Part shown: positions 20,351 to 63,928 of the stretch, in pieces | How positions within the stretch are numbered: the first letter of the stretch is position 1 | Layout: each line of letters opens with the position of its first letter | Assembly: GCA_022825265.1 (NCBI GenBank) | Contig: JAJDXE010000004.1 | Coordinates: forward strand, 42,343-106,342 | Origin: Dehalococcoidia bacterium | GTDB taxonomy: Bacteria > Chloroflexota > Dehalococcoidia > Bin125 | Direction: 5' to 3' | Length of the DNA: 64,000 nucleotides | The notes under the pieces: generated by a model | Databases searched by the model: none | What the model was told of the DNA's origin: nothing | The model's input: only the letters and a program-made list of their open reading frames with translations | Made by a program: the position numbers and the translations under genes

Positions 20351-20425
20351 GCGGGAGTAGCTCAGTGGTAGAGCATCTGCTTCCCAAGCAGAGGGTCGCG
20401 GGTTCGAATCCCGTCTCCCGCTCCA
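20351..20425 (+). tRNA. tRNA-Gly (anticodon CCC).
   Basis: Cloverleaf read directly: 7-bp acceptor gcgggag/ctcccgc, D-arm gctc agtggta gagc, anticodon stem tctgc / loop ttCCCaa / gcaga, T-arm gcggg ttcgaatc ccgtc, then CCA. Confidence 0.85.
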
Positions 20426-43116: not shown

Positions 43117-45633
43117 CTAGCGAATCACCTCGTCGACGAGCAACTGGGTGAACTCTTCCTCGCTCAGGCCGAGTTCCTGCCGATAGACCTGCTCGTTGTG
43201 CTCTCCGAAGAAGGGCGCACGGCGGATCGGCAAACGCTCCCCGTTCCAGAGGAACGGCTGGTTCTGAGCCATGAATCTGATTCCGACCGGGTGATCGAAC
43301 TCGTGGAAGAAGCCCTGCATCGACGGATCGGTGTCAACCAGGTCCTCAATGTCTTCGTTCGGTCCAGCCGGTACCCCGACCGCTTCGAATGAGGCAGTCG
43401 CCTGCCACACGCCCTGTCCGCAGGTCCACGCTGTGATCGCTGCCTCGATCTCGTCCTCAGCGGCCTTGCGCCCAGCCAGCGTGCGCAGATCGTCGCGCGA
43501 AGCCAGGTCGTCGCGACCAATCACACGGCAGATCTCCAGCCAGTCGACCGTGTTCCGCGCCGACAGCGCCAACCAGCGATCATCCCCTGCGCAGCGGAAC
43601 AGTCCGTGCGGAGACATCTCAGGCGAGCGATTGCCGCGTCTTGGCGACAACTCACCGTTGGCAAGCTGCTCGATCAGCTCCGTGTCGAGCAGGTGGATGC
43701 CAGCCTCGTACTGAGGAATCTCGATCTCCTGCCCGACCCCGGTGCGATCACGCTGGATCAGCGCCGAAATGATCGCCGTCACCGCCAGCGGGCCGAGCGT
43801 AAAATCGGTATGCAGCAACACACCGGTCGGCTTGCGGTCGGCAGCGCCGGTGTGGGCGGCCAGTCCGCAAAGCGCGACCACGCTATTCCCGATCCCCTTC
43901 CACGACGCCTTCGGACCCCAGGTCCCCATCACCGGCAGGCTGCACACAACGATCCGAGGATTGATCTTCTTCAGGTCTTCAAACCCCAGCCCCAATCGCT
44001 TCATCACGCCGCCCGTGAAGTTGTCGGTTACGACATCCGACTCGCGGATCAGGTCGTAGGCAACCCGAAGTCCGTCGGGCGCGCCGAGGTTGAGATTGAT
44101 GCTGCGCTTGTCGGTGTTGCAGTCCTGGAAAAACGCGCCGGTCTCAATCGTCGGCGGATCATGCGCAGGCAGCGCCACGCGAAGCGTGTCGATCCGGGCG
44201 TCGGACTCAACCTTGATCACATCCGCGCCGAGGTTGGCCATCAGCTCCGTCGTCAAGGGCCCCGCCGCCTGCCAGCAGAAGTCGATGACGCGAATCCCCT
44301 TGAGCGGCAGGCTGTCTCGATGGGCTGAGGACCTAGGCCGCGATCCATTTGCTCCCCCCTCTGGGGGGAGCTGTCGCGAAGCGACTGAGGGGGGTCCCGC
44401 CGCCGCTGCGGTACGGCGATTCGATCCCGCAACCAACCCACTGCCAACCAAATCGTCATATTCCGCAGAATCCAGACCAAGCAACTCCGACAGCACATTC
44501 CACGTATCCGCGCCCAACACCGGCGCCGGCCGGCCGACCGGCTCATAGCCGGTCGAGTGGATCGGCAGGCGCGGGAGATCGATCTCCCGCTCGAACTGAG
44601 GATGCTCAACCGAGAGGAATGCCCCTCGCTCATGTAGATGCGAGTCCTCGATGATGTCGCGGGCTGAGTTCACCGGCACGGCCAGGAACCCCCGGGACTG
44701 ACCCTCGTAGCACAGCTCCTCCCGATCCACCGAGGCGCAGGCTCGCTGAAACGCCTGGTGAGTCTCGCCGCCCCACTCCGGGATGTAGATGTCGCCCGGA
44801 TACTCCGCTCCGATGATTCCGTCGTAGCCCGCCCGCTCATACAGCCACTGTCCGAAGGCCGCCCAGCGTTCGTGCGTGTTCGGAGTAATCCCGAACGTCA
44901 GCCACCGACCGTCCCTGGCCTGCAACAGCGAAGAAATATCGCCCCCCGGACGAAACGCCTTCTCGCCCATCTGCCGCCACATGTTCTCGTTGGCGAAATG
45001 GATCGTGGTCGAGAGAATCGCTTCCTGCAGCGAGATGTACGCATGACTCGCGCGGACGCCGTTGCGCCGGTCGTAGAGCATCGCCACGCCGGTCGCCGCC
45101 GCGACCTGGCTGGCCTGCTTGTAAGCCAGCTTGCCCGCCGGATAGTCGGGCGCGACCTCAGGAAAACCCAGGCCCTCCATCAGACCACCGGCGGCGACGC
45201 CGACAATGTCAGACGCTGGCAGTCCCTCGCCGCCGCGCCGCGTCACCACGTCAATCACGCCCAGGTGCGGATGCACGCGCTGCAACCGTTCGCGGTCATA
45301 GAAGCGGCGCACGTCTGCATTCTTGTCCAACGGCGCGAGCACAACATCGGCGGCATCAAGCAGCCGATCGATCAGATCCCAAGCCCCCGGAGCATCGAAG
45401 TTCAGCGCCAGGCTGCGCTTGCCTGCGTTGTAGAGCAGATGCCGCAGCCCGCTCTCAATATCCGTCCCGTCGTCCAGATGCGGCCCGTTGATTCGCAGCG
45501 CGTCGCCCGTTGTTGCTTCAACCCGGATCACATCCGCGCCGAAGTCCGACAGCCAGCGAGCGCCCAGCGCCAGGCACTCGTCGCTCAGGTCGATCACGAC
45601 CGAGCTCGCCAGCGGAAGATCGGATAGCGCCAT
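43117..45633 (-). CDS. Duplicated-domain family-III CoA-transferase (838 aa), paralog of 38585..41023. A REP element is embedded in its inter-domain linker.
   Basis: Module 1 begins VVIDLSDECLALGARWLSDFGADVIRVEA. Module 2 begins LPLKGIRVIDFCWQAAGPLTTELMANLGADVIKVES. The linker ...AAAAGPPSVASRQLPPEGGANG... is encoded by the repeat at 44349-44400. Confidence 0.7.
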   Translation of the reverse strand: MALSDLPLASSVVIDLSDECLALGARWLSDFGADVIRVEATTGDALRINGPHLDDGTDIESGLRHLLYNAGKRSLALNFDAPGAWDLIDRLLDAADVVLAPLDKNADVRRFYDRERLQRVHPHLGVIDVVTRRGGEGLPASDIVGVAAGGLMEGLGFPEVAPDYPAGKLAYKQASQVAAATGVAMLYDRRNGVRASHAYISLQEAILSTTIHFANENMWRQMGEKAFRPGGDISSLLQARDGRWLTFGITPNTHERWAAFGQWLYERAGYDGIIGAEYPGDIYIPEWGGETHQAFQRACASVDREELCYEGQSRGFLAVPVNSARDIIEDSHLHERGAFLSVEHPQFEREIDLPRLPIHSTGYEPVGRPAPVLGADTWNVLSELLGLDSAEYDDLVGSGLVAGSNRRTAAAAGPPSVASRQLPPEGGANGSRPRSSAHRDSLPLKGIRVIDFCWQAAGPLTTELMANLGADVIKVESDARIDTLRVALPAHDPPTIETGAFFQDCNTDKRSINLNLGAPDGLRVAYDLIRESDVVTDNFTGGVMKRLGLGFEDLKKINPRIVVCSLPVMGTWGPKASWKGIGNSVVALCGLAAHTGAADRKPTGVLLHTDFTLGPLAVTAIISALIQRDRTGVGQEIEIPQYEAGIHLLDTELIEQLANGELSPRRGNRSPEMSPHGLFRCAGDDRWLALSARNTVDWLEICRVIGRDDLASRDDLRTLAGRKAAEDEIEAAITAWTCGQGVWQATASFEAVGVPAGPNEDIEDLVDTDPSMQGFFHEFDHPVGIRFMAQNQPFLWNGERLPIRRAPFFGEHNEQVYRQELGLSEEEFTQLLVDEVIR
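44349..44400. repeat. REP-family palindromic unit (gctcccccc-tct-ggggggagc ... gaggggggtcccgc) located inside a coding region.
   Basis: Direct read. It is homologous to the intergenic copy at 49211-49285 and is translated in-frame on the minus strand. Confidence 0.55.
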
Positions 45634-46406
45634 CAGCCCAGAGTAGATTCGTACGGGTGTTGGCGATACAGATCGCTCATCCGGTGAGTGATCAGCTGCA
45701 TCCGCAGGTCGTCATCGAGATGCGGCCACAGCGACCGATTCATCGATTCCTTGACCACGCCGAAGTAGCCGTGCCGCTCCCGCCCCATCGCCGCCAGACG
45801 GTTGGCCAGCTCATCCACTTCCTCGCGCAGCTTGCCCGGCTCGGCCACGCTGGTCACGAGACCCAGCTCCGCCGCCTCCGTCCCCGAAATGAACCGATCG
45901 TCGAGGATTAGCCGCGTCGCCTGCTTGAGCCCGACGTACTTGGGCAGAAACGCCGTCGCCGGGATCACCATCCGCAACTTCGCGTCCGGATCCGCGATCG
46001 CGTAGTCCGAGGCCAGCATCAAATCGAACCCCGAGCCCATGCAATAGCCCTGCACCTGCGCGATCACCATCTGCGGAATCCGCCGGAGCAGCGACTGCAT
46101 CCGAAAGTACGGATGCCGCTCCAGGTTGAACGCGGCGATGTGCGGAGCGTGATACGGGTTCTTCCACGGGTAGTCGGGAATCGATCCGTCCCCGCCCTCC
46201 GACACGTCATCGCCCGAGCAGAAGGAGCGTCCCTCACCAGCCAGCACCAGAACCTGAACCGCCGGGTCGCGCCCGACCCGGTTGATGACCTCGATCATCG
46301 CGTCGCCGACCTCGGTGTTGATCGCATTGTGTCGCTCAGGTCGGTTGATCGTCAGCCGGGTGATCGGCCCCTCCTCAACAATGAGTTCGCTGTGTTCGTT
46401 GGACAT
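45633..46406 (-). CDS. Enoyl-CoA hydratase/isomerase family protein.
   Basis: 257 aa. …LTINRPERHNAINTEV… and QGYCMGSGFDLMLASD are crotonase motifs. Confidence 0.8.
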   Translation of the reverse strand: MSNEHSELIVEEGPITRLTINRPERHNAINTEVGDAMIEVINRVGRDPAVQVLVLAGEGRSFCSGDDVSEGGDGSIPDYPWKNPYHAPHIAAFNLERHPYFRMQSLLRRIPQMVIAQVQGYCMGSGFDLMLASDYAIADPDAKLRMVIPATAFLPKYVGLKQATRLILDDRFISGTEAAELGLVTSVAEPGKLREEVDELANRLAAMGRERHGYFGVVKESMNRSLWPHLDDDLRMQLITHRMSDLYRQHPYESTLG

Positions 46407-46585
46407 GATTCGTCTCCCCCACCTGGCCCGAAGCCTAGATCACCTGCCAAGCCCTCGCTGAGACCCGTGTCAAGCGTCCACATACCGAGAAAATCAGGCG
46501 ATCCCGTGACAAATTGTGTAGCTTGTGATACGGAGCGCCACGCGGTGAGTGGGGCTCTGTCCTGGTACGGAATCTGAGGAAACAC

Positions 46586-47995
46586 ATGTCGGAAACGCTG
46601 GAGATCGCCCAGATGGCGCACTTGATGCGGCGGGCTGGGTTTGGCGCGTCGCGCGATGAGCTGGAGCGGCTCGTCGAGCAGGGTTACGAAGAGACGGTCG
46701 AGCAGTTGGTCGACCCGCCCGCGGAGATCCCGCGCGCCGACCTGTATCAACTATTCCGCTACATGCCGTCGCTGGAGACCGGTGGTCCGGTGACTGTCCC
46801 CGGGGCGGCCAACTGGCTCTACCACCTGGTCAACACGCAGCGGCCGCTGGAAGAGAAGATGGCGCTGTTCTGGCACGGCATCTTCGCGGTGGGCAACTCC
46901 AAGGTCGACAACGACAATCACCTGACCGCGATGGTCGACATGTTCCGCGATCACGGAACCGGCAACTATCGCGACCTGCTCATCATGCTGGCCCAGAGCC
47001 CGGCGATGATTTACTGGCTCGACAACCACGAGAACCACAAGCGCTCGCCCAACGAGAACTGGGGCCGCGAGTTGTTGGAGCTGTTCTCGATGGGGGTCGG
47101 CAACTACACGGAGAAGGACGTCTTCGAGTGCGCCCGCGCCTTCACCGGCTGGACGCTGGGTCCGAAGATCCCGCGCGTGCCCAACCACCGCTTCTTCTTC
47201 CAGTTCGAGTTCCGCCCCGAGGAGCACGACTTCGGCGAGAAAGAGTTCCTCGGCCGCACGGGCAACTTCGACGGCCTCGACATCATCGACATCATCCTCG
47301 AGGAAGACGCCTGCCCGCGCTTCATCGCGCGCCATCTGTACACGTTCTTCGTCGCCGACGAGCCGCAGGTGCCGGCCTGGGACATCGAACCACCGAAGGA
47401 TCCCGAGGCGATCGACTATCTCGCCGGCGTGTTGAAGGACTCGAGCTACGAAATCAAGCCGGTCCTGCGCGCTCTGTTCAACTCGGACTTCTTCAAAGAA
47501 GCCACCTTCCAGAAGGTTAAGAGTCCGGTCGAGACCGTGGTCTCGACGCTGCGCTTGACCGAGGACCTGTTTGGTCCTCAGCCGGCCCTGATCGAGCTGG
47601 GTCAGGAATCAGCGCACATGGGCCAGAGCCTGCACAATCCGCCTTCGGTTGAAGGCTGGTCAACGGGCCCAAACTGGATCAACTCCGGCGCCGTGGTCGG
47701 ACGGATCAACTTCGTCGCCGACCGGGTGAGCAACACCGAGTTGCCCGGCGTGCAGAAGATCTGCCAGCGCGTCGCCGCGTCGAACGGCGCGAAGATGACG
47801 CCGAACGAGATGGTTGACCATTGCCTCGACCTGTTCGGTCCGCTCGACGTGGCCGAGGCCACGCGGCTGGAACTGATCGAGCACGCGTCAGAAGGCGGCG
47901 AGCTGTCCTGGAACGAGGACTACGACGGTTCCTCGGAGCGCGTCGGCGAGATGCTTGCGCTGATCGCGGCGACGACGGAGTACCAGTTCGGCTAA
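46586..47995 (+). CDS. DUF1800-domain protein.
   Basis: The N-terminal hallmark MRRAGFGAS is present. 469 aa with no signal peptide. Confidence 0.7.
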   Translation: MSETLEIAQMAHLMRRAGFGASRDELERLVEQGYEETVEQLVDPPAEIPRADLYQLFRYMPSLETGGPVTVPGAANWLYHLVNTQRPLEEKMALFWHGIFAVGNSKVDNDNHLTAMVDMFRDHGTGNYRDLLIMLAQSPAMIYWLDNHENHKRSPNENWGRELLELFSMGVGNYTEKDVFECARAFTGWTLGPKIPRVPNHRFFFQFEFRPEEHDFGEKEFLGRTGNFDGLDIIDIILEEDACPRFIARHLYTFFVADEPQVPAWDIEPPKDPEAIDYLAGVLKDSSYEIKPVLRALFNSDFFKEATFQKVKSPVETVVSTLRLTEDLFGPQPALIELGQESAHMGQSLHNPPSVEGWSTGPNWINSGAVVGRINFVADRVSNTELPGVQKICQRVAASNGAKMTPNEMVDHCLDLFGPLDVAEATRLELIEHASEGGELSWNEDYDGSSERVGEMLALIAATTEYQFG

Positions 47996-48041
47996 GAGAG
48001 CACCAACGATCGCACAGGAGCAGCACAGAGAGACCCCAGCC

Positions 48042-49199
48042 ATGACCACCGCGACCAACAGCAAAGACCCCGTCGTCGTCATCATCCAGTTGACCGGCGG
48101 CAACGACTACATGAACAGCGTGGTGCCCTACGCGGACGGGTACTACAACGACGCCCGTAACGGCGAGCTCTGCATCGGCGAGGACCAGGTCCTCAAGATC
48201 GACGACCACTTCGGCTTGCACCCGACGATGGCGCCGCTGAAGGAGCTCTACGACCAGGGCGAGATGGCCCTGATCCACGGCGTCGGTTACCCCAACTCGC
48301 CGCGATCGCACTTCCGCTCAATGGACATCTGGCACACCTGTGAGCCCAACAAGGTCGGAACCGAGGGCTGGGTCGGCCGCGCGATCCGCGACCTCGATCC
48401 GACCGGCGAGAACCCCGTCACGGGTGTGCATATCGGACAGGGGTTGCCGCGCGCGCTGGTCGTGCCGGGTGTGACCGTGGCGTCCGTCGCCGACCTGTCG
48501 ACCTACGGTCTGCTGACCGGCATCGAGCAGCAGCGGCAGCGCGAGAAGATGCTCGAGCGGTTTGTCAACATGTACGGCCGCGCGATCGGCACTGGCTACG
48601 TCCAGGAGTACCTGGGCCGCACGGGACTCGACGCGCTCAAGGGCGCCGACATCCTCAAGGAGGGCCTGGGCCGCTACGAGACATCGGTCGAGTGGGGCAC
48701 CGAGCAGATCTCTCGCAGTCTCAAGGACATGGCCACGATTCACTGCGCCGACCTCGGCACGCGCGTCTTCTACACGCAGTTGATCGGGTTCGACACACAC
48801 GCCAACCAGAAGCCGGTCTTCGAGAAGTTGTGGACCGACCTCTCACGGGCGATCTCGGACTTCTGGGACGACGTCAAGGCCCACGACCGCGCCGACAACG
48901 TGATCATGTTCCTGTTCACCGAATTCGGCCGCCGGGTGCGGGACAACGGCTCCGGCTCCGACCACGGCGCCGGCGGCGGTTGCTTCGTGATCGGCCCGCA
49001 TGCCGTTGGCGGCATGCACGGCGAGTTCCCCAGCATCAACCCCAGGGACCTTGAGCAGGGCGACCTGGTTCCCAACCACGACTTCCGCGGGGTCTACTCG
49101 ACGCTGCTCGAGGACTGGATGGGCCTCGACGCCAAGCCAATCGTTGACGGCGAGTTCGAGAAGCTCAGCTTCATCGAGCCAGTCATGGCGACTGCCTGA
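48042..49199 (+). CDS. DUF1501-domain protein (sulfatase/alkaline-phosphatase-like fold).
   Basis: The N-terminus VVVIIQLTGGNDYMN and GSGSDHGAGG are typical of DUF1501. It lacks the usual Tat signal. Confidence 0.7.
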   Translation: MTTATNSKDPVVVIIQLTGGNDYMNSVVPYADGYYNDARNGELCIGEDQVLKIDDHFGLHPTMAPLKELYDQGEMALIHGVGYPNSPRSHFRSMDIWHTCEPNKVGTEGWVGRAIRDLDPTGENPVTGVHIGQGLPRALVVPGVTVASVADLSTYGLLTGIEQQRQREKMLERFVNMYGRAIGTGYVQEYLGRTGLDALKGADILKEGLGRYETSVEWGTEQISRSLKDMATIHCADLGTRVFYTQLIGFDTHANQKPVFEKLWTDLSRAISDFWDDVKAHDRADNVIMFLFTEFGRRVRDNGSGSDHGAGGGCFVIGPHAVGGMHGEFPSINPRDLEQGDLVPNHDFRGVYSTLLEDWMGLDAKPIVDGEFEKLSFIEPVMATA

Positions 49200-49210
49200 G
49201 CATTTCCCAG

Positions 49211-49342
49211 GAGCTCCCCCTCTGGGGGAGCCTGCCCCACACTCGATGCGGGGCTGTCGCGGAGCAACTGAGGGGGCTCTCCGCGTCAATTGTCAGGTCG
49301 GCCCCCTCCGTCACTTCGTGACACCTCCCCCAGAGGGGGAGG
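49211..49342. repeat. Compound REP-like element: two perfect hairpins (gctccccc-tct-gggggagc and acctccccc-aga-gggggaggt) flanking a GC-rich core.
   Basis: Direct read. Homologous to the copies at 44349, 56759 and 63803. Confidence 0.55.
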
Positions 49343-49358
49343 TCTTTGAGGAGCAGCC

Positions 49359-50381
49359 ATGCTGACCACGACCGTTGCCGGGCGCACCTGGCATTTCGAC
49401 CACTCGATCGGGCATTTCGTCGGCCCGCAGGGCTATACCTACCCGACTCCGATTGCGATGACGCCTGCCGGCACGATGTACGTCGCCGACATCGGCCTGG
49501 CCGAGTACTCAGGCGCGGGCGGCCTCGGCTCGAAGATCTACAAGCATCGGATCGAGGACGAGTTCCTCGGCGAGATGGGCGCGGGCGACCTCAAGTGGCC
49601 CGAGGGCCTCGCGCTCGCCGCCGACGGATCGGTCTGGTGCGCCGACGCCTTCCACCACCGCATTTTCGGCTACGACGCCGAAGGCTCGCCGATCGGCGAC
49701 TGGGGCGACTTCGGCGACGGCGACGGTCAATTCAATCGGCCCTCCGGGATCGCCTTCGACGCTGACGACAACCTACACGTCGTCGACAGCCACAATCACC
49801 GGGTGCAAACGTTCACCAAGGGCGGCGAGTTTCTCGGTTCCTGGGGCACGCACGGCTCCGACGAGGGACAGCTCAACCAGCCGTGGGGAATCTCATTCGA
49901 CAACGAGGGCGCGCTGTATCTCGCCGACTGGGGCAACGATCGCGTGCAGAAGTTTGCTCCCGACGGCGAGTTCCTGGGACGCTTTGGCTCGCGTTACGAG
50001 GACATCGGCGTCGACGACGGCGGCAGCCTCAAGCGTCCGGCCGATGTCGCGGTCGACAGCGTCGGCGACGTCTACGTCTGCGACTGGGGCAACCGCCGGG
50101 TCCAGATCTACTACCCGGACGGCGACATCATCTGCAGCCTCCAGGGCGACGCGCATGAGTTCTCCAGTGCAGCGGCGAAAGTCATGGAAGTCAATATGGA
50201 GTACGCCCAGGCCTTCCGCCGTGTCAATCCGGTCGAGTTGATCAAGTTCGGCATCTTCGACCGTCCGCGCGGCATCGCCATCGACGGCCAGGACCGGATC
50301 GCGATCAGTGACGGGGGCCGCGGCCGGGTGCAGGTCTACCACAAGGATCACGACTACCTGGTCCCGCAGTTCAATGCCTAG
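49359..50381 (+). CDS. NHL-repeat (six-bladed beta-propeller) protein.
   Basis: Repeated ...NRPSGIAFDADDNLHVVDSHNHRVQTF... and ...NQPWGISFDNEGALYLADWGNDRVQKF... blades. GAGGAG RBS at 49347. Confidence 0.7.
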   Translation: MLTTTVAGRTWHFDHSIGHFVGPQGYTYPTPIAMTPAGTMYVADIGLAEYSGAGGLGSKIYKHRIEDEFLGEMGAGDLKWPEGLALAADGSVWCADAFHHRIFGYDAEGSPIGDWGDFGDGDGQFNRPSGIAFDADDNLHVVDSHNHRVQTFTKGGEFLGSWGTHGSDEGQLNQPWGISFDNEGALYLADWGNDRVQKFAPDGEFLGRFGSRYEDIGVDDGGSLKRPADVAVDSVGDVYVCDWGNRRVQIYYPDGDIICSLQGDAHEFSSAAAKVMEVNMEYAQAFRRVNPVELIKFGIFDRPRGIAIDGQDRIAISDGGRGRVQVYHKDHDYLVPQFNA

Positions 50382-50395
50382 TTGTTGATCGGGCG

Positions 50396-51382
50396 GTGCT
50401 GCGACTGGGACTCCTCGGAGCCGCGGCGATTGCGCCGCGCGCGATCATCAAGCCGGTCCAGGTATTCGACGACGTCGAGATCGTCAGCATGGCCGCGCGC
50501 CATCGTGAGCGCGCCGAAGTCTTCGCCGCCCGCGCCGGTATAGCCACGGTCCACGACAGCTACGAAGAAGTTGTCAGCGATCCGAACGTCGACGCGGTCT
50601 ACAATCCGCTGGCGATCAGCGGGCACCACGAGTGGACGATCAAGGCGCTCAACGCAGGCAAGCACGTGCTTTGCGAGAAGCCGTTGGCGATGAACGAGGC
50701 CGAAGCGCGGGAGATGGCCGACTGCGCTCGTGAGAACGGACTGGTTTGCGCCGAGGCGTTTCATTACTACTACCATCCGGTCTCCCGGCGAATGCGCGAA
50801 AATGTTCGAAGCGGCATCCTCGGAGAGATTCGATTCGCCGACGCCCACTTCCAGAACCTGGTCGAAGAAACTCCCGAGCAGATCCGCTACCGGATCGAGC
50901 TGGGCGGCGGCTCGACCATGGATCTGGGCTGCTACCCGCTGCACTTCCTTCGTCACACCTTCGGCGCGGAGCCCAAAGTCGTTTCGGCCAGGGCCGGCAT
51001 CGTCCATGAGCACATCGACATCGAGATGGAAGCCGAATTGCTCTTCCCCGGCGGGATCCCGGCTCGCACCTGGTCGCGGATGAACACCACCGCCGGCTGG
51101 TCATCGGTCGTCAATGTCTTCGGTGACCGTGGCCGCCTCAAGGTGGTCAATCCGCTCGTGCCTCACCGTGAACCGCATGTGATCGAAATTGTCACATCGT
51201 GGGGTACGCGCCGGGAGACCCTGACCAAGCGCCCAACCTTCGAATTCCAGCTCCAGGCCTTCATCGACGCCATCGAAGGCGTCAGGCCGATGCCGACCGA
51301 CGCCGAGGACGGCGTCGTCAGCATGCGCGTGATCGACAATGTCTATCGGGCAGCGGGTATGATTCCGCGCGGCCAGATTTAG
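50396..51382 (+). CDS. Gfo/Idh/MocA-family NAD(P)-dependent oxidoreductase.
   Basis: Rossmann N-terminus LRLGLLGAAAIAPRAI and the EKPLA motif. Confidence 0.8.
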   Translation: MLRLGLLGAAAIAPRAIIKPVQVFDDVEIVSMAARHRERAEVFAARAGIATVHDSYEEVVSDPNVDAVYNPLAISGHHEWTIKALNAGKHVLCEKPLAMNEAEAREMADCARENGLVCAEAFHYYYHPVSRRMRENVRSGILGEIRFADAHFQNLVEETPEQIRYRIELGGGSTMDLGCYPLHFLRHTFGAEPKVVSARAGIVHEHIDIEMEAELLFPGGIPARTWSRMNTTAGWSSVVNVFGDRGRLKVVNPLVPHREPHVIEIVTSWGTRRETLTKRPTFEFQLQAFIDAIEGVRPMPTDAEDGVVSMRVIDNVYRAAGMIPRGQI

Positions 51383-51418
51383 ACTTCATCTGACTTGAGC
51401 ATCTGACTTGAACGTGAC

Positions 51419-52234
51419 ATGACCGACCGCATCCGCGCCATCGACTCACTGATCAACTCCGCCTTCCTCGATCCCTCAGGCGACACCGCCCTCAGCTACT
51501 TGTTCAAGGACATCGAGGGCCGAGGCGCGATCGAAACGCCCGAGCAGCTGCTCGAAGTCCTCGATCAGTCCGACATCGGGGCCGGCGTCGTCTCGATCAT
51601 GCAGCCGGAGCACGCCGAGTGGGTCGGCAACGCCCACCAGCAGTTCCCGGACAAGATCCTGCCCGCGATGATCGTCAATCCGCTCAACGGCTACGACGAA
51701 ATCCGCAAGGTCGTCGACTACTACGAGCGCTACGGAGTCCGCTGCCTGCGCATCCCGCCCTTCCGCTACGAGCTCCCGCCAACCGACCGTGTCTACTGGC
51801 CCTTCTACGTCAAGGCGCTCGAGCTCGGCATCGCCGTCTCAATGAACGCCGGCATGCCCGGTCCCAGACGCCCCGGCTGGGTCCAGAACCCAGTCCACTA
51901 CGACGAGGTCGCCTACCACTTCCCCGAACTCCGCCTGATCATGACCCACTGCGGACAGCCCTGGATCGAGGAAGCGATCTCAACCATCGCCCATTGGGAC
52001 CACGTCTACATGTCCTGCACCTCGGTCGCGCCCAAGTACTGGCCGCCAAACTTCGTCCAATTCATCAACACCCGCGGCCGCAAGAAGATGATGTTCGGCA
52101 CCGAGTACCCGACCATCCCCTGGCCCAGAGCCCGAGACGAAATCGACGCCCTCCAGCTTCGTGAAACAGTCGTCAACGACTTCTTCGTCCAAAACGCCCG
52201 CGAAGCCTACCGCTGGAACGCCGATCCGGACTGA
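51419..52234 (+). CDS. Amidohydrolase-2 family metal-dependent hydrolase (TIM barrel).
   Basis: 271 aa. ...MTHCGQPW... and ...MFGTEYP... are typical of the ACMSD/LigI-like superfamily. Confidence 0.6.
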   Translation: MTDRIRAIDSLINSAFLDPSGDTALSYLFKDIEGRGAIETPEQLLEVLDQSDIGAGVVSIMQPEHAEWVGNAHQQFPDKILPAMIVNPLNGYDEIRKVVDYYERYGVRCLRIPPFRYELPPTDRVYWPFYVKALELGIAVSMNAGMPGPRRPGWVQNPVHYDEVAYHFPELRLIMTHCGQPWIEEAISTIAHWDHVYMSCTSVAPKYWPPNFVQFINTRGRKKMMFGTEYPTIPWPRARDEIDALQLRETVVNDFFVQNAREAYRWNADPD

Positions 52235-52242
52235 ACCAGCCG

Positions 52243-52914
52243 CTAATCCGGCCAGTGAGCATGCATCGCCTGCACCCACGTATGCCGAGTCAGCGAATGC
52301 CGCTCACGAACACTCTCCTGGAACAGCTTCAGCAGATCCTCCGAGACCCCCGAACCGGGCGCCTGCGGAGTCCGAGTCTCATGCCAGTGCCCGACCGAGT
52401 CGTAGCCGGCCAGGTTCGTGACCTCCATGTCGTCGCTCAGCACGGCGTCATGGAAGTTGCCCAACACCCGATGCCCCATCGCGTCCATCGCCGGCCAGAC
52501 CCCGAACTCGGTCAGCTCTGAGAAGCGCTCCCATGTCGACGGATCAATCGTCCAGCGGCGCAATCCGTACACCGCCCGACGGTCCGAATCGGGAGTCTCC
52601 GCCAGCGGCCTGCCCGAATACGGAATCTTCGGCCGCGCCGTCTCATTCACGATCAGTTCACGCCGAGCGTTGCGGTAGGAGTCATCGCCAAGCCCGACCA
52701 GGATCTCCTGACCCCGCCGCCAGTCATCCCAACTCGGAGACCCAATGAAGGTGTGTACCTCCTCGGGAGTCCCGCCGATCGCCGGGTTGAGCAGACACAG
52801 AGGCCGGAACCCCGCCTCGACCAGTCGGGGCCACGACTCCTGCACGAACAAGTCCCGGTACTCGGGGAACCGCTTCGGCTCGACCATCGTCACGCGGTGT
52901 TCGTAGAGGTCCAT
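52243..52914 (-). CDS. Hypothetical protein, possibly tandem NIPSNAP-like (dimeric alpha+beta barrel) domains.
   Basis: Two ~100 aa halves with a similar pattern (…FPEYRDLFVQESWPRLVEAGF… and …WERFSELTEFGVWPAMDAMG…). Confidence 0.35.
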   Translation of the reverse strand: MDLYEHRVTMVEPKRFPEYRDLFVQESWPRLVEAGFRPLCLLNPAIGGTPEEVHTFIGSPSWDDWRRGQEILVGLGDDSYRNARRELIVNETARPKIPYSGRPLAETPDSDRRAVYGLRRWTIDPSTWERFSELTEFGVWPAMDAMGHRVLGNFHDAVLSDDMEVTNLAGYDSVGHWHETRTPQAPGSGVSEDLLKLFQESVRERHSLTRHTWVQAMHAHWPD

Positions 52915-52982: not shown

Positions 52983-54674
52983 ATGGCCGAATCCTGCGAC
53001 ATCGTCGTCATCGGTGGCGGACCGGGCGGTTCGGCCTGCGCCACGTTGCTCGCCGATCAGGGCTACCGCGTCACGCTGCTGGAGCGCGCCAAATTCCCCC
53101 GCGAACACGTCGGAGAGTCCCTCCTACCGGCCAGCATTCCGGTACTCGAGCAGATCGGAGTCATGCCCGCGATCGAGGCCGCCGGATTCGTCGTCAAGCG
53201 CGGCGCCACACTCGTCTGGGGCAAGGATCCCGACCCCTGGAGTTGGTACTTCGCCGACGACCCCGGCCAGCGCCCCACCTCCTTCCAGGTCGTCCGCTCC
53301 GAGTTCGATCACATCCTGCTCAAGAATGCGGCCGAACACGGCGTCGACGTACGCGAAGAGCACCAGGTCCTCGATATCCATTTCGATGGAGCGCGAGTCG
53401 CGGGCGTCAGCTACCTGCACGGTGGACAAGCGGGCGAAATCAACTGCCGGTTCCTCGTCGACGCCAGCGGTCAGGCCGCGCTGCTCAGTCGCAAGCTGAA
53501 TCTGCACCAGTGGGACGACTACTTCAAGAATCTCGCCGTCTACGGCTACTACCAGGACGCCAAACACCTCGATCCGCCCAACAACGGCAACATCTTCATC
53601 GAGTCCTACGAACACGGCTGGCTCTGGAAGATTCCGCTGCACACCGGAGTCACCAGCGTCGGCGCCGTCGTCGATAAGGAGATCGGCCAGCAGGGCCTGC
53701 GCGAACTGGGTGCCAGGGGATTCCTCGAAGCACAGATCGCCGAGGCGCCGAATACCAGGGAACTCCTGGCCGGGGCGACGATGGTCGACGAGCCGGACGT
53801 CGAACGCGACTGGTCCTACACCTCGAAGCAATTCGCCGGCGATGGCTACGTGCTCGTCGGCGATGCCGCCTGCTTCGTCGATCCGCTCTTCTCCTCCGGC
53901 GTCCACCTCGCGCTGGGCAGCGCAACGCTCGCGGCCAACTACGTCAAGTCGGCGCTCGAACAGCCCAAGGCCCGAGATCAGGCGGCGCAGCTCTACGAGT
54001 CGCTCTATCGCAAGCAGTACGACTACTTCCACCTGACCGCCCAGCTCTTCTACGGGACCAACCGCAGCGCCGATTCCTACTTCTGGGAGGCCCGCCGCAT
54101 CCTCGGCGACGACGACACCACACCCCGAGAAGCCTTCGTGCGAGTCGTCAGCGGGCAACCGCCGCAGGGCTACGAGCGTGCCGTCATCGAGCATGGCGAG
54201 CTACCAGCCGAGATCGAATCCGAGGTCCGTCGCCGCGACGAGCGAGCCGAACGTCGCCGTCGAGAGACCGAGGCCCTGACGGCTGAATCCGGAGCGTTGC
54301 TCCGCGCCGTCCCGACGTTGCCGGCCCACGTCAAGCTCGAACAGCGCCGAGCACTCGCCGGCGCCAACTTCCAGCAGGCGTTTCAGCTCGTGGTCGAGAC
54401 AAGCCAGGGCCGTTCGGAGCCATTTCCAGTGACGGCAGTCATGGCTGCCTGCATCGGGCAGATGAACGGGCGGACATCGCTCGGCGACATCGTGGCGACC
54501 GTCAATCGACAGCACAATCTCCGCGGTGAACAAGGCCTGCGCACGATCATCGAGCGCGATCTCCCACCCCTGATCGAAGCCGGCCTGGTCGACGTGACCA
54601 CCCGCAACGCCGGACGCAACGATCCCTGTCCCTGCGGCTCGGGCAAGAAGTACAAGCGCTGCCACGGTCGCTGA
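52983..54674 (+). CDS. Flavin-dependent halogenase-like FAD oxidoreductase (PltA/Bmp2-type) with a C-terminal SEC-C metal-binding motif.
   Basis: Contains GxGxxG (VVIGGGPGGS), GESLLP...VVKRGATLVWG, WxWxIP (GWLWKIPL) and FxDPxxSxG (FVDPLFSSG). The C-terminal 14 aa are CPCGSGKKYKRCHG. Confidence 0.65.
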   Translation: MAESCDIVVIGGGPGGSACATLLADQGYRVTLLERAKFPREHVGESLLPASIPVLEQIGVMPAIEAAGFVVKRGATLVWGKDPDPWSWYFADDPGQRPTSFQVVRSEFDHILLKNAAEHGVDVREEHQVLDIHFDGARVAGVSYLHGGQAGEINCRFLVDASGQAALLSRKLNLHQWDDYFKNLAVYGYYQDAKHLDPPNNGNIFIESYEHGWLWKIPLHTGVTSVGAVVDKEIGQQGLRELGARGFLEAQIAEAPNTRELLAGATMVDEPDVERDWSYTSKQFAGDGYVLVGDAACFVDPLFSSGVHLALGSATLAANYVKSALEQPKARDQAAQLYESLYRKQYDYFHLTAQLFYGTNRSADSYFWEARRILGDDDTTPREAFVRVVSGQPPQGYERAVIEHGELPAEIESEVRRRDERAERRRRETEALTAESGALLRAVPTLPAHVKLEQRRALAGANFQQAFQLVVETSQGRSEPFPVTAVMAACIGQMNGRTSLGDIVATVNRQHNLRGEQGLRTIIERDLPPLIEAGLVDVTTRNAGRNDPCPCGSGKKYKRCHGR

Positions 54675-54779: not shown

Positions 54780-54842
54780 TCGACCCGAAGCGCGAAGCCC
54801 TTCTAGACCCGGGTGACGCGGAGCGAGAACAGAAGGAGACGT

Positions 54843-56738
54843 ATGGAACGCAACTATTGGTCACGGATGAGGCGGCAGCGGATGAGCCGTCGATCCTTGC
54901 TGCGCGCGAGCGCCCGGGCAGGTGTGGGCGCCGCAGGTCTGGCGCTCGTCGGTTGTGGCGACGATGATGACGACGATCAGCAGGCCGCTGCGCAGGTCCA
55001 ACAGCAACAGCAGGCGATGCAGCAGCAGGCCGAACAACAGGCCATGCAGCAGGAGCAGCAGGAAGCTCCCGCTCAGCAACAGCAACAACAGCAGCAGGCG
55101 GCCGTCGCCCAGGCGCAGGACCAGGCGATGGTCGACAGCCAGGGCAACACGATCCAGACCGGCGGCGTCTTCAAGCGCGCAGCCGCATCGCAGCTCACGC
55201 TGATCCGCTTCCCCTGGAACTCGGCCGGCAACAACGGCACCATCGACCCAACCGGCTACATGTACAACTGCCTCACGCAGTACGGCGGCGTCCAGCTCGA
55301 CGAGACAGCCAACCGCTTTTGGGAGTACGCCAACCCCGACTGGGAGATCAAGCCCGATGTCGCCGCCGGTTGGGAAACGCCCGACAACCTGACCTGGATC
55401 TTCGACATCAAGCCCAACGTCGTCTTCCACGACGGTCGCGCCTTCACCGCCGACGACGCGGCGCACAGCTACGAGGCGATCCGCGACCAGGGCGTTTCCG
55501 GCGGCGGTTCACCGGCCTACAACCTGGGCAAGGTGATCGCCGGCACCGAGGCGATCGACGACTCAACGATGCGACTCAGCCTGGGCGAGCCGCGCGGCTT
55601 CACCGGCGCGCTGACCGCCTACGTTCGCATGGGTCACCCCGAAACTGCCGGCTCCGCCACCGCGCCGGCGCTCGACGTGGCGCGCAACGAAGAGGCCGTG
55701 CTGATCGGCACCGGCCCCTGGCGCTTCGACACCGACAGCTACGACCCCAACACCGGTTGGCGTCTGACGCCCTTCCCAGAGAGCCACATGGGCGCGCCCA
55801 ACATGGACGAGATCACCTACACGATCTTCTCCGACGCCGACGCCATCGGTATCGCCCTCGAAGCCGGCGACATCGACTCCCACAACGGCATCCCCTTCAA
55901 CAATCCCGAGACCATCGACCGGCTGATCGCCAGCGACGACCACTGGGGTTGGGCCGGCACCAGCCTCGGCGGACAGATCTTCCGCTTCGCGATCGACGTC
56001 GAGCCGACGACCGACCCGCGCGCCCGGCACGGCGTCTGGCGAATGGTCGACCAGGAGCGCGTCGTGCGCGACTACTTCGGTCCCTACGACGACGCTGGAC
56101 GACTCTTCTTCCAGCGCGGCTCGCAGGGCTACATCGAGGACCAGGACCGGCCCAACTACGACCCGGCCGAGGGCGCTAAGCTGCTCGACGCCGCGGGCGT
56201 CGGCGAAGGCAGCGTGCTGACCGCCAGCACCCTCCCGATTCGCCCCTACGCTCCGGCCCTCGCACAGTTGCTCCAGGCCGAACTCTCGACCCTCGACATC
56301 GAACTCGAGCTCGACCCGACCGAGTACAACGTCATGATCGAGAAGCAGCAGGCCGGCGACTTCGGCAACTTCCTGATCGGTTTCGGCAACTGGATCCGCC
56401 CCGAGTCCGCAGCGCTCGCCATGGTCATGCAGGACGCCCTGCACGGCGAAGGCAACGCCAAGCGCGGCGGCGACGCCAGCAACCCGATCCCGGTCCGCGA
56501 ACGTCCCTACATGGACAACTACTTCCACTGGCTCGACATGATCATCGATGTCCAGACCGGAAACCACGAGGACACCGAGGAATACTGGCGCTCGTTCAAC
56601 GACACCTTCCACGAGGTCATGTTCGCCCAGGCCATCGCGCGACAGCGCGGTGCGGAGTTCTACACCAACAGGGTCCACGTGCCCGACCCGGGCCCCACGA
56701 CCCCGAACCCGCAAACGGTCTGGCTCGAACAGACCTAA
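54843..56738 (+). CDS. ABC transporter substrate-binding lipoprotein, family 5, paralog of 31864..33786, with the same Tat/lipobox and poly-Q linker architecture.
   Basis: Signal MSRRSLLRASARAGVGAAGLALVGCGDDDDDDQQ..., then a Q-rich tract, then the SBP_bac_5 core. The start at 54843 has AAGGAG 4 nt upstream. Confidence 0.8.
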   Translation: MERNYWSRMRRQRMSRRSLLRASARAGVGAAGLALVGCGDDDDDDQQAAAQVQQQQQAMQQQAEQQAMQQEQQEAPAQQQQQQQQAAVAQAQDQAMVDSQGNTIQTGGVFKRAAASQLTLIRFPWNSAGNNGTIDPTGYMYNCLTQYGGVQLDETANRFWEYANPDWEIKPDVAAGWETPDNLTWIFDIKPNVVFHDGRAFTADDAAHSYEAIRDQGVSGGGSPAYNLGKVIAGTEAIDDSTMRLSLGEPRGFTGALTAYVRMGHPETAGSATAPALDVARNEEAVLIGTGPWRFDTDSYDPNTGWRLTPFPESHMGAPNMDEITYTIFSDADAIGIALEAGDIDSHNGIPFNNPETIDRLIASDDHWGWAGTSLGGQIFRFAIDVEPTTDPRARHGVWRMVDQERVVRDYFGPYDDAGRLFFQRGSQGYIEDQDRPNYDPAEGAKLLDAAGVGEGSVLTASTLPIRPYAPALAQLLQAELSTLDIELELDPTEYNVMIEKQQAGDFGNFLIGFGNWIRPESAALAMVMQDALHGEGNAKRGGDASNPIPVRERPYMDNYFHWLDMIIDVQTGNHEDTEEYWRSFNDTFHEVMFAQAIARQRGAEFYTNRVHVPDPGPTTPNPQTVWLEQT

Positions 56739-61369: not shown

Positions 61370-61451
61370 CCCTCACCCCAGCCCTCTCCCTCGGAGAAGG
61401 CACGCTCCCCTTCCGATCCCCTCTCCCTCTGGGAGAGGGCTAGGGTGAGGG
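61370..61451. repeat. REP-like nested inverted repeat with 21-bp arms (ccctcaccccagccctctccc / gggagagggctagggtgaggg, one mismatch) enclosing ccctctccc-tct-gggagaggg.
   Basis: Direct read. It lies between the amidohydrolase and dehydrogenase genes and is probably also a terminator. Confidence 0.55.
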
Positions 61452-62544: not shown

Positions 62545-63798
62545 ATGTCCTGGCGACCCAAGCGCATGAAATTCGGACTATTCCTCGCTCCATTCCACTC
62601 CGTCGGCGAACACCCGACCCTCGCCCTTCAGCGCGACGTGGAGCTGATCGAGCACCTCGACGACCTCGGCTACGACGAAGCCTGGATCGGCGAGCACCAC
62701 TCGTTCGCTCGCGAGATCATCTCCAACCCGATGATCTTCATCGCCGCCCTGGCTGAGCGAACCAAGCACATCAAGCTCGGCACCGGCGTCGTCTCCCTGC
62801 CCTACCACAATCCGCTGATGATCGCCGACGACCTGCTCCAGCTCGACCACATGACTCGCGGTCGCGTGATGCTCGGAGTTGGACCCGGCGCGCTCACCTC
62901 CGACGCCGTGCAGATGGGCATCGAGCCAACCACCCAGCGCCAGCGCATGGCCGAGGCATTCGACGCCATCGTCCAGCTCGCCCGGGACGAAGAGCCGGTC
63001 TCGATCGAGACCGACTGGTTCTCCTTGACCGAGGCTCGCCTGCAGATGGCCTGGTACTCCGATCCGCATCCCGAGCTCGCCGTCGCCGTCATCCTCACCC
63101 CGTCCGGACCGCAACTTGCCGGCAAGCACGGCGCCAGCCTGCTCTCCGTCGCCGGCGCCGACTCCGATGGCATGAAGCAGGTCTGGGACTGGTACGAAGA
63201 AGCCGCAACCGAGAACGGCCACGAGGTATCGCGCAAGAACTGGCGCGTCGTCACCGCGATCCACATCGCCGAGACCCGCGCCCAGGCGATCGATGATGTC
63301 CGCGCTGGATTCCTCAAGCGCGCCTACGTCGGCGACGTCCGCGATCCCGGCCGCCGCGGCGGCATCGCGCTGCAGATGGCCGACACGATCGAGGAAGCGA
63401 TCGACAAGAATATGGTCATCGTCGGCTCGCCCGACGACGCCGTCGACCAGATCGAGGCCATGCACGACCGCTCCGGCGGCATCGGCGGACTCCTCGGCAT
63501 GCACCACGAGTGGGCCTCGACCGACGCCACCAAGCGCAGCTTCGAGTTACTCATGCGCTACGTCGCCCCGAGGTACCAGGGACAGCTCGACCGCCTTGTC
63601 GCCTCCCGCGACTTCGTCGAAGATCGCCAGCTCGACATCTTCGGCGCCGGTCAGAAAGCAATGGCCAAAGCCTTCGCCGACGCCGGCAAGGACCTGCCCG
63701 AAGCCTTCCAGCAAGCCATCGCCGCGCGTGCCGAAGAAACCAACGGAGCCAGCGCCCCCTCCGAAGCCGAAGCTGAGGCCGAACCCGTCGCCGACTAG
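62545..63798 (+). CDS. LLM-class flavin-dependent oxidoreductase.
   Basis: 417 aa. MKFGLFLAPFH...GYDEAWIGEHH is the classic luciferase-like N-terminus. Confidence 0.75.
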   Translation: MSWRPKRMKFGLFLAPFHSVGEHPTLALQRDVELIEHLDDLGYDEAWIGEHHSFAREIISNPMIFIAALAERTKHIKLGTGVVSLPYHNPLMIADDLLQLDHMTRGRVMLGVGPGALTSDAVQMGIEPTTQRQRMAEAFDAIVQLARDEEPVSIETDWFSLTEARLQMAWYSDPHPELAVAVILTPSGPQLAGKHGASLLSVAGADSDGMKQVWDWYEEAATENGHEVSRKNWRVVTAIHIAETRAQAIDDVRAGFLKRAYVGDVRDPGRRGGIALQMADTIEEAIDKNMVIVGSPDDAVDQIEAMHDRSGGIGGLLGMHHEWASTDATKRSFELLMRYVAPRYQGQLDRLVASRDFVEDRQLDIFGAGQKAMAKAFADAGKDLPEAFQQAIAARAEETNGASAPSEAEAEAEPVAD

Positions 63799-63802
63799 CA
63801 GC

Positions 63803-63928
63803 CTGCTCTCCCCTCTAGGGGAGTTTCCCTAGCTATCCTCTCCCCCCTTGGGGGAGAGGACCCGACCATCCCCTTTTCTCCCCCCTTTGGGGGGGAGATG
63901 CCGCAGGCAGAGGGGGGCTCCCGGGCCT
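63803..63928. repeat. Cluster of three or four REP-like hairpins (ctcccc-tcta-ggggag, tctcccccc-ttg-gggggagagg, tctcccccc-ttt-gggggggaga, gaggggggctccc).
   Basis: Direct read, downstream of the LLM gene stop. Confidence 0.55.

Follow-up and report, generated by a model that had tools for sequence, protein, structure and literature searches.

The subject of this analysis is a group of three adjacent genes in a 64,000-nucleotide (nt) stretch of DNA, referred to here as the window, from a SAR202-type Dehalococcoidia bacterium (GenBank assembly GCA_022825265.1, contig JAJDXE010000004.1, positions 42,343 to 106,342 of the forward strand; G+C content about 65%). Five co-directional open reading frames (ORFs) on the + strand span positions 46586-52234, and the first three encode proteins of the domain-of-unknown-function (DUF) families DUF1800 and DUF1501 and an NHL-repeat protein, with 46 nt between the first two (Table 1). 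The DUF1800/DUF1501 pair and its twin-arginine translocation (Tat) signal are known already. The window apparently holds a distinct, monophyletic and cytoplasmic branch of this system, as judged by sequence comparison, in which the alkaline-phosphatase-type catalytic core is intact. We tentatively read the trio, at somewhat short of even confidence, as a conserved cytoplasmic hydrolase module of three proteins that plausibly processes an imported metal chelate.

All three products are placed by Pfam profiles. The DUF1800 protein matches PF08811 with 352.7 bits (cut-off 26.1), its residues 12-467 aligning to positions 1-418 of the 419 in the profile, and the NHL protein scores 122.9 bits against PF01436, with four scored repeats. 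The DUF1501 protein reaches 67.1 bits against PF07394 (cut-off 27); this model covers residues 235-347 only, but full-length homology to family members is clear, and the core motifs are present (GGNDxxN in the first strand, R-S-H-F, G-F-D-T-H, S-E-F-G-R-R and T-D-H-G). Its nearest homologs belong to metagenome-assembled genomes (MAGs) of SAR202-type Chloroflexota/Dehalococcoidia, the best being 96% identical and encoded on a 340-kb scaffold; an exact look-up of the window protein in public assemblies gave no record.

The initial annotation of this DNA had proposed that neither the DUF1800 nor the DUF1501 protein has a signal peptide, and N-terminal length, motif content and hydropathy bear this out. 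The ATG at 48042 is the first ATG, GTG or TTG past the upstream in-frame stop of the DUF1501 gene, so no standard start codon permits an N-terminal extension, and the first core strand, VVVIIQLTGGND, begins after no more than 10 residues; the protein does open directly with its conserved core. Among the 120 closest DUF1501 homologs (at least 67% identity), lengths are 362-397 aa and the core strand begins at residue 11-16 in 118. At 31 loci the longest upstream ORF extends at least four residues further; an RRxFL motif with a hydrophobic stretch is absent from all of these, and all contain a conserved internal start, M(T/A)(S/T)TKKDP. An overlooked upstream start encoding a Tat signal was thus looked for and not found, either in the window or at the 31 extended loci. 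Further, across the signal-less lineage (69-94 loci per protein), neither DUF1800, DUF1501 nor the NHL protein shows an N-terminal extension, a twin arginine with a hydrophobic region or a transmembrane segment, and the S/T-R-R-x-F-L-K Tat motif with its h-region is absent from all three window proteins. These calls were based on N-terminal extension length, the RR motif and hydropathy. Because Kyte-Doolittle hydropathy alone fails to separate Tat h-regions (controls 1.07-1.71), the conclusion rests on extension length and the RR motif.

The window also provides an internal control in the solute-binding lipoprotein SBP_bac_5, which bears a textbook twin-arginine lipoprotein signal, MSRRSLLRASARAGVGAAGLALVGC, before its mature domain. 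Exported proteins of this organism do carry twin-arginine-type signals. The SBP_bac_5 ORF as listed opens at a GTG 25 codons further upstream, and an acidic and poly-glutamine low-complexity linker (DDDDDDQQAAAQVQQQQQAMQQQ...) lies between signal and binding domain.

Among relatives of DUF1501, export is the rule. A HMMER search of 1.84 billion cluster representatives (50% identity) returned 12,520 DUF1501 relatives at E up to 0.001. Of the 128 full-length representatives among the best 150 (33-42% identity), 116 carry RRxFL 40-60 residues ahead of the core strand, and most of the remaining 12 have an N-terminal extension of similar length. The statement that DUF1501 is usually Tat-exported is therefore well founded. 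The Tat-bearing pairs examined, from Thermus, Miltoncostaea, Agarilytica, Vibrio and Paracoccus plasmids, have DUF1800 followed by DUF1501 and no NHL neighbour; in some (Miltoncostaea and Thermus), DUF1800 has no obvious signal.

Neighbour-joining of 213 DUF1501 sequences unites all 85 signal-less proteins in one exclusive clade (bootstrap 81/100 in an 88-taxon subsample). Its members are the proteins of the SAR202 trios, the six SAR202 copies that stand alone, sequences from Actinomycetota and two representatives from metagenomes. The Tat signal thus seems to have been lost once, a provisional conclusion from a distance tree. The cytoplasmic version of DUF1501 implied in the initial annotation is supported by the absence of a signal, in contrast to the Tat-bearing relatives. 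The module would descend, apparently via one event, from a normally Tat-exported DUF1800/DUF1501 pair.

Could the proteins still be exported, through Tat hitch-hiking or an unrecognised signal? Hitch-hiking is established for other heteromeric enzymes, the DUF1800 proteins of the Miltoncostaea and Thermus pairs show no obvious signal either, and DUF1800 has a twin arginine near its N-terminus: residues 11-20, AHLMRRAGFG (46616-46645), represent a near-invariant H-L-(L/M)-R-R-A-G-F-G. However, this motif is part of a helix within the Pfam domain, and polar helix residues rather than a hydrophobic region come after it, so that motif-only Tat predictors could mis-call it. The uniform absence of extensions and signals also argues against export, as does the make-up of the transporter-linked operons described below, where the binding protein alone has an export function. 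Residual export is very improbable and effectively excluded.

The NHL gene recurs with the pair in many other genomes. A scan of one genome per GTDB species gave at least 594 matching stretches, and counts out of 80 refer to the best 80 loci, all from Dehalococcoidia/SAR202/Chloroflexota except one Tectimicrobiota and one Caldilineaceae bin. The canonical order DUF1800-DUF1501-NHL, with gaps below 400 bp, was found at 61 loci, and the three genes lie within 2.5 kb at 9 more. Two of the remaining loci have no DUF1800, six have a solitary DUF1501, and two have no nearby NHL gene (a contig ends in one, and the NHL gene is 4.7 kb off in the other). DUF1800 adjoins DUF1501 at 70 of the 80, in keeping with their earlier description as a co-occurring pair. 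A metagenome scan seeded with distant members added 80 further loci, with NHL at 68 and DUF1800 at 65; most of the others are short contigs. Homologs from 96% down to 67% identity lie in five unrelated flanking contexts, and the trio is intact in all five. Micromonospora musae, a Mycobacterium sp. MAG and unassigned contigs also keep the linkage, although identity there is down to 34-40% (34-37% for Actinomycetota). Trio genes in the Micromonospora and Mycobacterium loci have 4-nt start/stop overlaps, which suggests translational coupling.

Gene order was counted at 136 loci with all three genes, including a few near-duplicate places of one genome: 113 are DUF1800-DUF1501-NHL, 12 DUF1501-DUF1800-NHL, 10 DUF1800-NHL-DUF1501 and one NHL-DUF1501-DUF1800. 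All three genes share one strand at every locus, the median gaps being 58-97 nt. That the genes have been rearranged and yet stay linked is strong comparative evidence of functional coupling. Most examples come from related Dehalococcoidia genomes, and the adjacency of the NHL gene might be read as functionally meaningless synteny inherited within one clade. This is hardly credible, and effectively excluded, when three gene orders keep the trio together while the flanks differ wholly between loci, when the linkage persists in distant Actinomycetota, in Tectimicrobiota and at a locus with a TonB receptor, and when the Tat-bearing pairs have no NHL gene. As judged by this conservation, the NHL gene is a true third member of the module. 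A search for gene fusions among 180 loci gave no convincing case.

Several variations on the trio were observed. At L027, L084, L092, L122, L144 and L175 the pair is followed by a tandem array of two or three NHL paralogs, and the propeller subunit is thus duplicated in some genomes. A signal-less DUF1501 gene with neither DUF1800 nor NHL nearby occurs at L041, L044, L057, L058, L074 and L079, in several cases followed by a 139-aa ORF (weak aspartyl-protease-like match) and a radical-SAM/HHH protein. The DUF1800 gene at L070:4499-5872 has an in-frame stop codon and is a pseudogene or an assembly error. In one SAR202 sub-clade (L036, L040, L042 and L043), a gene 5' of the trio on the + strand encodes a 613-aa protein that combines an fn3/purple-acid-phosphatase-N-like domain with numerous leucine-rich repeats. 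The Tectimicrobiota, the phylum of Entotheonella, contribute the trio-bearing examples L075 and P0311. A proteomic study reported two abundant DUF1800 proteins from the vesicle fraction of Entotheonella that mineralises arsenic and barium (PMC12981691), which we count with the importer and metal links below.

Structure predictions, which used alignments of database proteins, confidently place DUF1501 in the alkaline-phosphatase superfamily, with a model closest to the nucleotide pyrophosphatase/phosphodiesterase (NPP) type of phosphodiesterases. The predicted structure has the alpha/beta core of the superfamily, with a putative nucleophile at the start of a helix and putative Asp/His metal ligands. 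Among 134 sequences, signal-less and Tat-bearing together, D22, H90, D251, H253, E294, F295, R297, D307, H308 and G309 are invariant, and at least 90% keep N21, S89, F91, G296 and R298. D22 ends strand 1, and S89/H90 N-cap helix 90-99, at the canonical place of the nucleophile. The nucleophile is probably Ser89, with Asp22, Asp251/His253 and Asp307/His308 as likely metal ligands; this mapping relies on fold match and conservation because a profile alignment to an NPP-family protein was non-significant. Exported and cytoplasmic forms share their catalytic residues, so the chemistry would seem to be independent of the compartment.

The initial annotation had called DUF1501 sulfatase-like, which needs correction, as the predicted fold is nearer to NPP-type phosphodiesterases and the C/S-x-P-x-R formylglycine motif is absent, the nucleophile context being P-N-S-P-R-S89-H-F-R-S. 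Pfam searches gave no match to Sulfatase (PF00884), even at E up to 10, or to Phosphodiest (PF01663). The identity of a formylglycine (S1) sulfatase was rejected for want of the maturation motif and of a Sulfatase match. DUF1501 is only 9-14% identical to NPP/ENPP, PafA, phosphonate monoester hydrolase and S1 sulfatases. Unlike NPP/ENPP, with a Thr nucleophile in a two-zinc, six-ligand site, it has Ser at the nucleophile position, and unlike these and other superfamily hydrolases it needs, or at least accompanies, a DUF1800 partner. In the module, DUF1501 would be the catalytic subunit, an NPP-like metallo-hydrolase acting as a phospho- or sulfo-ester/diester-type hydrolase or transferase.

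Sequence searches of the PDB gave no match for either DUF1501 or DUF1800. DUF1800 is predicted to be all-helical, a fold with no solved relative, and to contain an invariant polar pocket. It would be the obligatory helical partner; possible roles for it are the binding of a substrate or cofactor and the activation of DUF1501. The NHL protein is predicted from its sequence to be a canonical six-bladed NHL propeller. Its blades share the conserved motif D-x-x-N-x-R-(V/I)-Q, and no conspicuous cluster of catalytic residues is seen. Its best solved relatives by sequence are TRIM-NHL proteins (Thin/TRIM32, 1.5e-57; TRIM71, about 1e-56) and PknD, all binding propellers. It would have been recruited only in the cytoplasmic lineage, most likely as a binding or scaffolding subunit. 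We infer a joint function for the three proteins, probably in a complex.

Leads to the substrate come from loci outside SAR202 (Micromonospora, the Mycobacterium MAG and metagenomes), where importer or NicT genes share a strand with the trio. A TonB receptor, FecCD, ABC and Peripla_BP_2 genes precede DUF1800, DUF1501 and NHL at L100; FecCD, ABC and Peripla_BP_2 precede the trio in M. musae (L096), and Peripla_BP_2 precedes it at L012. The trio is followed by Peripla_BP_2 and FecCD at L101, and Peripla_BP_2, FecCD and ABC precede a solitary DUF1501 at L148. In the Mycobacterium sp. MAG (L097), the trio is followed by a NicT nickel transporter (594 bits, cut-off 450), and a FUR gene lies 4 kb off. 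Adjoining that FUR gene, 3 kb 5' of the trio, is an NPP-family gene (PF01663 Phosphodiest, L097:3881-4999), a second alkaline-phosphatase-superfamily enzyme at this locus. Type II importers of the FecCD/Peripla_BP_2 kind are known for the uptake of siderophores, haem or cobamides, and not for that of general organic esters.

Fur-family links recur in SAR202 itself. A Fur-family gene lies directly beside the trio at 7 of the 80 SAR202 loci, in two independent arrangements (after NHL at L045, L051, L062 and L091; before DUF1800 at L017, L018 and L019), and also at metagenome locus L159. At seven further loci (L032, L036, L037, L040, L042, L043 and L050), a TTATAATCATTATCA-like palindrome that departs from the classical 7-1-7 Fur box by one mismatch is placed about 145 nt 5' of DUF1800. 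The immediate flanks of these boxes have diverged, and elsewhere in about 1.3 Mb (the window and L001-L099) only two TTATAATCATTATCA matches occur at up to two mismatches.

Because of these importer and Fur links, we regard an imported metal chelate as the single most likely class of substrate, an assignment held with low confidence. The module would act on a small molecule received from an uptake system, the likeliest being a siderophore-like, haem-like or metallophore-like metal chelate, and would open or modify the chelate so that the metal or the scaffold becomes usable. At least in some lineages, Fur-family regulators would tie its expression to metal status. A bolder version, in which the trio is an unrecognised cytoplasmic machinery for dismantling or unloading imported metal chelates, built on the alkaline-phosphatase-superfamily subunit and the new helical fold, and the Tat-exported pairs are its periplasmic counterparts, seems to us rather unlikely.

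Several observations weigh against the processing of a metal chelate. The window has no FecCD, Peripla_BP_2, FUR or NicT gene, and no Fur-box-like site was found in the region 5' of the trio (46407-46585). The transporter link is rare in marine SAR202-type loci (1 of 80 metagenome loci), whose neighbours are mostly catabolic (SDRs, luciferase-like monooxygenases and CoA-transferases). Several genomes have two or more copies. This pattern is more in keeping with the catabolism of diverse substrates than with one task of iron release. Scans of the five loci bearing transporter or NicT genes (L012, L096, L097, L100 and L101) for IdeR, Fur and Zur boxes were negative. The adjacent Fur-family proteins match PerR models best (Fur models also), with scores under every curated cut-off. 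In addition, the nearest solved relatives of the NHL protein are non-enzymatic binders, and the hhalign probability of the DUF1501 profile against the NPP-family protein was 0.13.

Much of this would fit a cytoplasmic esterase module for the catabolism of organic phosphate, sulfate or phosphonate esters or related dissolved organic matter, part of a paralog-expanded SAR202 set with no metal link; the importers of other phyla would then serve the uptake of an organic substrate. By its model, the DUF1501 fold is equally similar to phosphodiesterases, phosphonate monoester hydrolases and sulfatases. Beyond the multiple copies, a second DUF1800 gene is found at L028, L064, L080 and L116. The flanks of SAR202 trios also hold a sulfatase (L008), ABC peptide-type permeases and SBP_bac_5, and the neighbours in the window include a CoA-transferase, an enoyl-CoA hydratase, the Gfo/Idh/MocA oxidoreductase and the amidohydrolase. 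Against this stand the substrate range of FecCD/Peripla_BP_2 importers, the recurrence of Fur-family genes and Fur-like boxes by the trio, NicT beside it in Mycobacterium and the fact that no single catabolic neighbour family is conserved. General organic-ester catabolism by SAR202 is itself doubtful, yet nearly as likely as the metal chelate.

The same importers could also point to salvage or remodelling of a cobamide or other corrinoid/haem cofactor, with DUF1501 cleaving the nucleotide-loop phosphodiester after BtuBCDF-like uptake. The order at L100 is that of BtuB/BtuCDF as well, the Peripla_BP_2 protein of L096 weakly matches BtuF, IsdE, F420-0 binding proteins and siderophore binders alike, and the Mycobacterium trio (L097) has in its neighbourhood both NicT, which transports Ni/Co, and a CbiA/CobQ-like gene. 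The predicted similarity of DUF1501 to phosphodiesterases would suit such a reaction. However, no cobalamin riboswitch or other Rfam family was found at L012, L096, L097, L100 or L101 or near the window trio, and Fur-type boxes and regulators indicate iron or peroxide, not B12. We consider cofactor salvage quite unlikely.

The regions upstream of some trios show further features. The seven loci with a TTATAATCATTATCA-like box have clear TTGACA / TAAATT-type promoters about 90-150 nt 5' of DUF1800, the palindrome lying about 25 nt upstream of the -35 element and not over the promoter; their leaders (about 80-90 nt) have hairpin potential and a strong GGAAGGAGG ribosome-binding site. At L030 and L061, 30-52 nt 5' of DUF1800, an inverted repeat ATAATCATT-(N10)-AATGATTAT between the predicted -10 element and ribosome-binding site may represent two Fur-type half-sites at an unusual spacing. 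Also, L060, L063, L068 and L076 share the motif (A/G)AA(A/C)CGTAATNAC, 16-57 nt 5' of DUF1800, which resembles a Zur-box half-site (TCGTAAT); no matching second half-site was seen at these four loci. A promoter and terminator consensus scan of window positions 46300-52400, which included sigma-70 at 46407-46585, gave no match.

A hairpin in the gap between DUF1501 and NHL had been put down to a repetitive extragenic palindromic (REP) element, and hairpin-forming repeats are indeed present, but they represent a lineage-specific insert and no feature of the trio. The 159-nt gap folds as a long hairpin (-102.7 kcal/mol, z = -7.39 against shuffles), flanked by the palindromes CTCCCCCTCTGGGGGAG (49214-49230) and CTCCCCCAGAGGGGGAG (49325-49341) of the form CTCCCCC(N3)GGGGGAG. 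Related palindromes lie in intergenic DNA of the window at 61421-61437 and 63840-63856, giving four matches of this family where 0.1 were expected, and several CTC(C/T)CCC...GGG(G/A)GAG palindromes stand in a row at 63780-63900. By their sequence, the copies at 49214, 49325, 61421 and 63840 look like a dispersed REP-like family, of which few are seen in 64 kb. The hairpin is partly shared with the 96%-identical relative (L001) and absent from the other loci among L001-L099, and the median DUF1501-NHL gap of canonical-trio relatives is about 97 nt. On this comparison, it is a lineage-specific insert, like a REP element or a miniature inverted-repeat transposable element (MITE), that is tolerated within the operon and lies outside the system.

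Table 1. Features of the trio and its surroundings in the window (positions are those of the 64,000-nt stretch).
Feature	Coordinates	Strand	Basis or remark
Upstream intergenic region, presumed promoter and leader	46407..46585	+	179 nt after divergent enoyl-CoA hydratase gene
DUF1800 protein, 469 aa, predicted all-alpha, without signal peptide	46586..47995	+	PF08811, E 4.5e-105, full-length match
DUF1501 protein, 385 aa, predicted alkaline-phosphatase superfamily, without Tat signal	48042..49199	+	PF07394, 67 bits
Intergenic REP/MITE-like long hairpin, palindromes at both ends	49200..49358	.	Folding and repeat counts
NHL-repeat protein, 340 aa, without signal peptide, third conserved member	49359..50381	+	PF01436, 4 repeats, E 1.7e-36
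Gfo/Idh/MocA oxidoreductase, 328 aa, local neighbour	50396..51382	+	PF01408, PF22725, PF02894
Amidohydro_2 protein, 271 aa, local neighbour	51419..52234	+	PF04909, E 5.8e-31
SBP_bac_5 solute-binding lipoprotein, twin-arginine-type signal	54813..56738	+	PF00496, E 2.6e-52

Neighbouring genes were picked by selection aware of third-position G+C content (GC3) and by homology clustering. The Gfo/Idh/MocA and amidohydrolase genes do follow the trio, as the initial annotation had it; they are not part of the unit, and were rejected as system members, since they recur downstream only in the 96% relative L001. The contexts of other relatives include Ldh_2, sulfatase, transposase, OTCase and FUR genes, among others, and SAR202 flanks in general are a mixture of SDRs, luciferase-like monooxygenases, OTCase, ABC permeases and others. 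Upstream, an 838-aa protein (43117-45633, - strand) has two tandem CoA-transferase family III domains; a gene resembling it lies near the trio at L003, and L001 has a second copy. Downstream, a 563-aa FAD-dependent tryptophan-halogenase-like protein (52983-54674, + strand) has a C-terminal SEC-C motif (CPCGSGKKYKRCHG), an unusual domain pairing. The part from about 6 to 20 kb has a strongly positive GC skew, and the cumulative skew reaches its maximum at 40-44 kb and then falls steadily, so there may be a replication-related or strand-bias switch inside the window. A tRNA gene lies at 20351-20422.

The branch can be set against systems described before. A Tat-exported DUF1800/DUF1501 operon has been reported next to bacterial chitin synthases (PMC5122149), and published accounts of the pair and its Tat motif give no function (PMC5122149, PMC3542564). 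The trio has the same two Pfam families, in the same order, as the exported pair of Proteobacteria, Deinococcota and others, and keeps the DUF1501 core motifs GGND, SHF, DTH, EFGRR and DHG. In contrast to that pair, the window DUF1501 has no twin-arginine signal and its DUF1800 no Sec or lipoprotein signal, an NHL protein is attached, and DUF1501 falls in a separate clade. In the superphylum of Planctomycetes, Verrucomicrobia and Chlamydiae (PVC), DUF1501 is found in modules with PSCyt1/PSCyt2/PSD1 (DUF1549/DUF1553) (PMC3542564). Here too DUF1501 is paired with a large partner, and residues 268-307 of DUF1800 give weak, sub-threshold matches to PSD1, PSD2 and PSD5, a similarity under every curated cut-off, which hints that DUF1800 and the PSD partners may be distantly related. 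However, the PVC partners have cytochrome-c motifs and signal peptides and are envelope-targeted, whereas the trio has no haem motif, signal or PSCyt domain.

Ferric siderophores are processed in the cytoplasm by Fes-type esterases and siderophore-interacting reductases, which are encoded beside FecCD/Peripla_BP_2 importers. The trio resembles such loci where an importer operon is followed by cytoplasmic enzymes, with Fur-family elements at some loci. The proteins differ, since the known processors are alpha/beta hydrolases or flavoreductases and the trio would combine an alkaline-phosphatase-superfamily enzyme, a new helical fold and an NHL propeller; the importer link is also absent in the window itself. 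The literature searched mentions DUF1501/DUF1800 only as an unexplained Tat-linked pair with no function given, and the signal-less clade, the NHL partner and the links to FecCD-type importers and Fur-family genes were not found there.

SAR202 is an abundant deep-ocean and sponge-associated group. The cytoplasmic branch is common in SAR202-type Dehalococcoidia, and occurs as well in Micromonospora musae and a Mycobacterium sp. assembly, lineages with cultivable members. The DUF pair has become experimentally approachable in such lineages, and the importer linkage gives a first testable lead to what the trio may do. If the trio were indeed a machinery for unloading imported chelates, with periplasmic counterparts in the Tat-exported pairs, a function would be assigned to two large DUF families.

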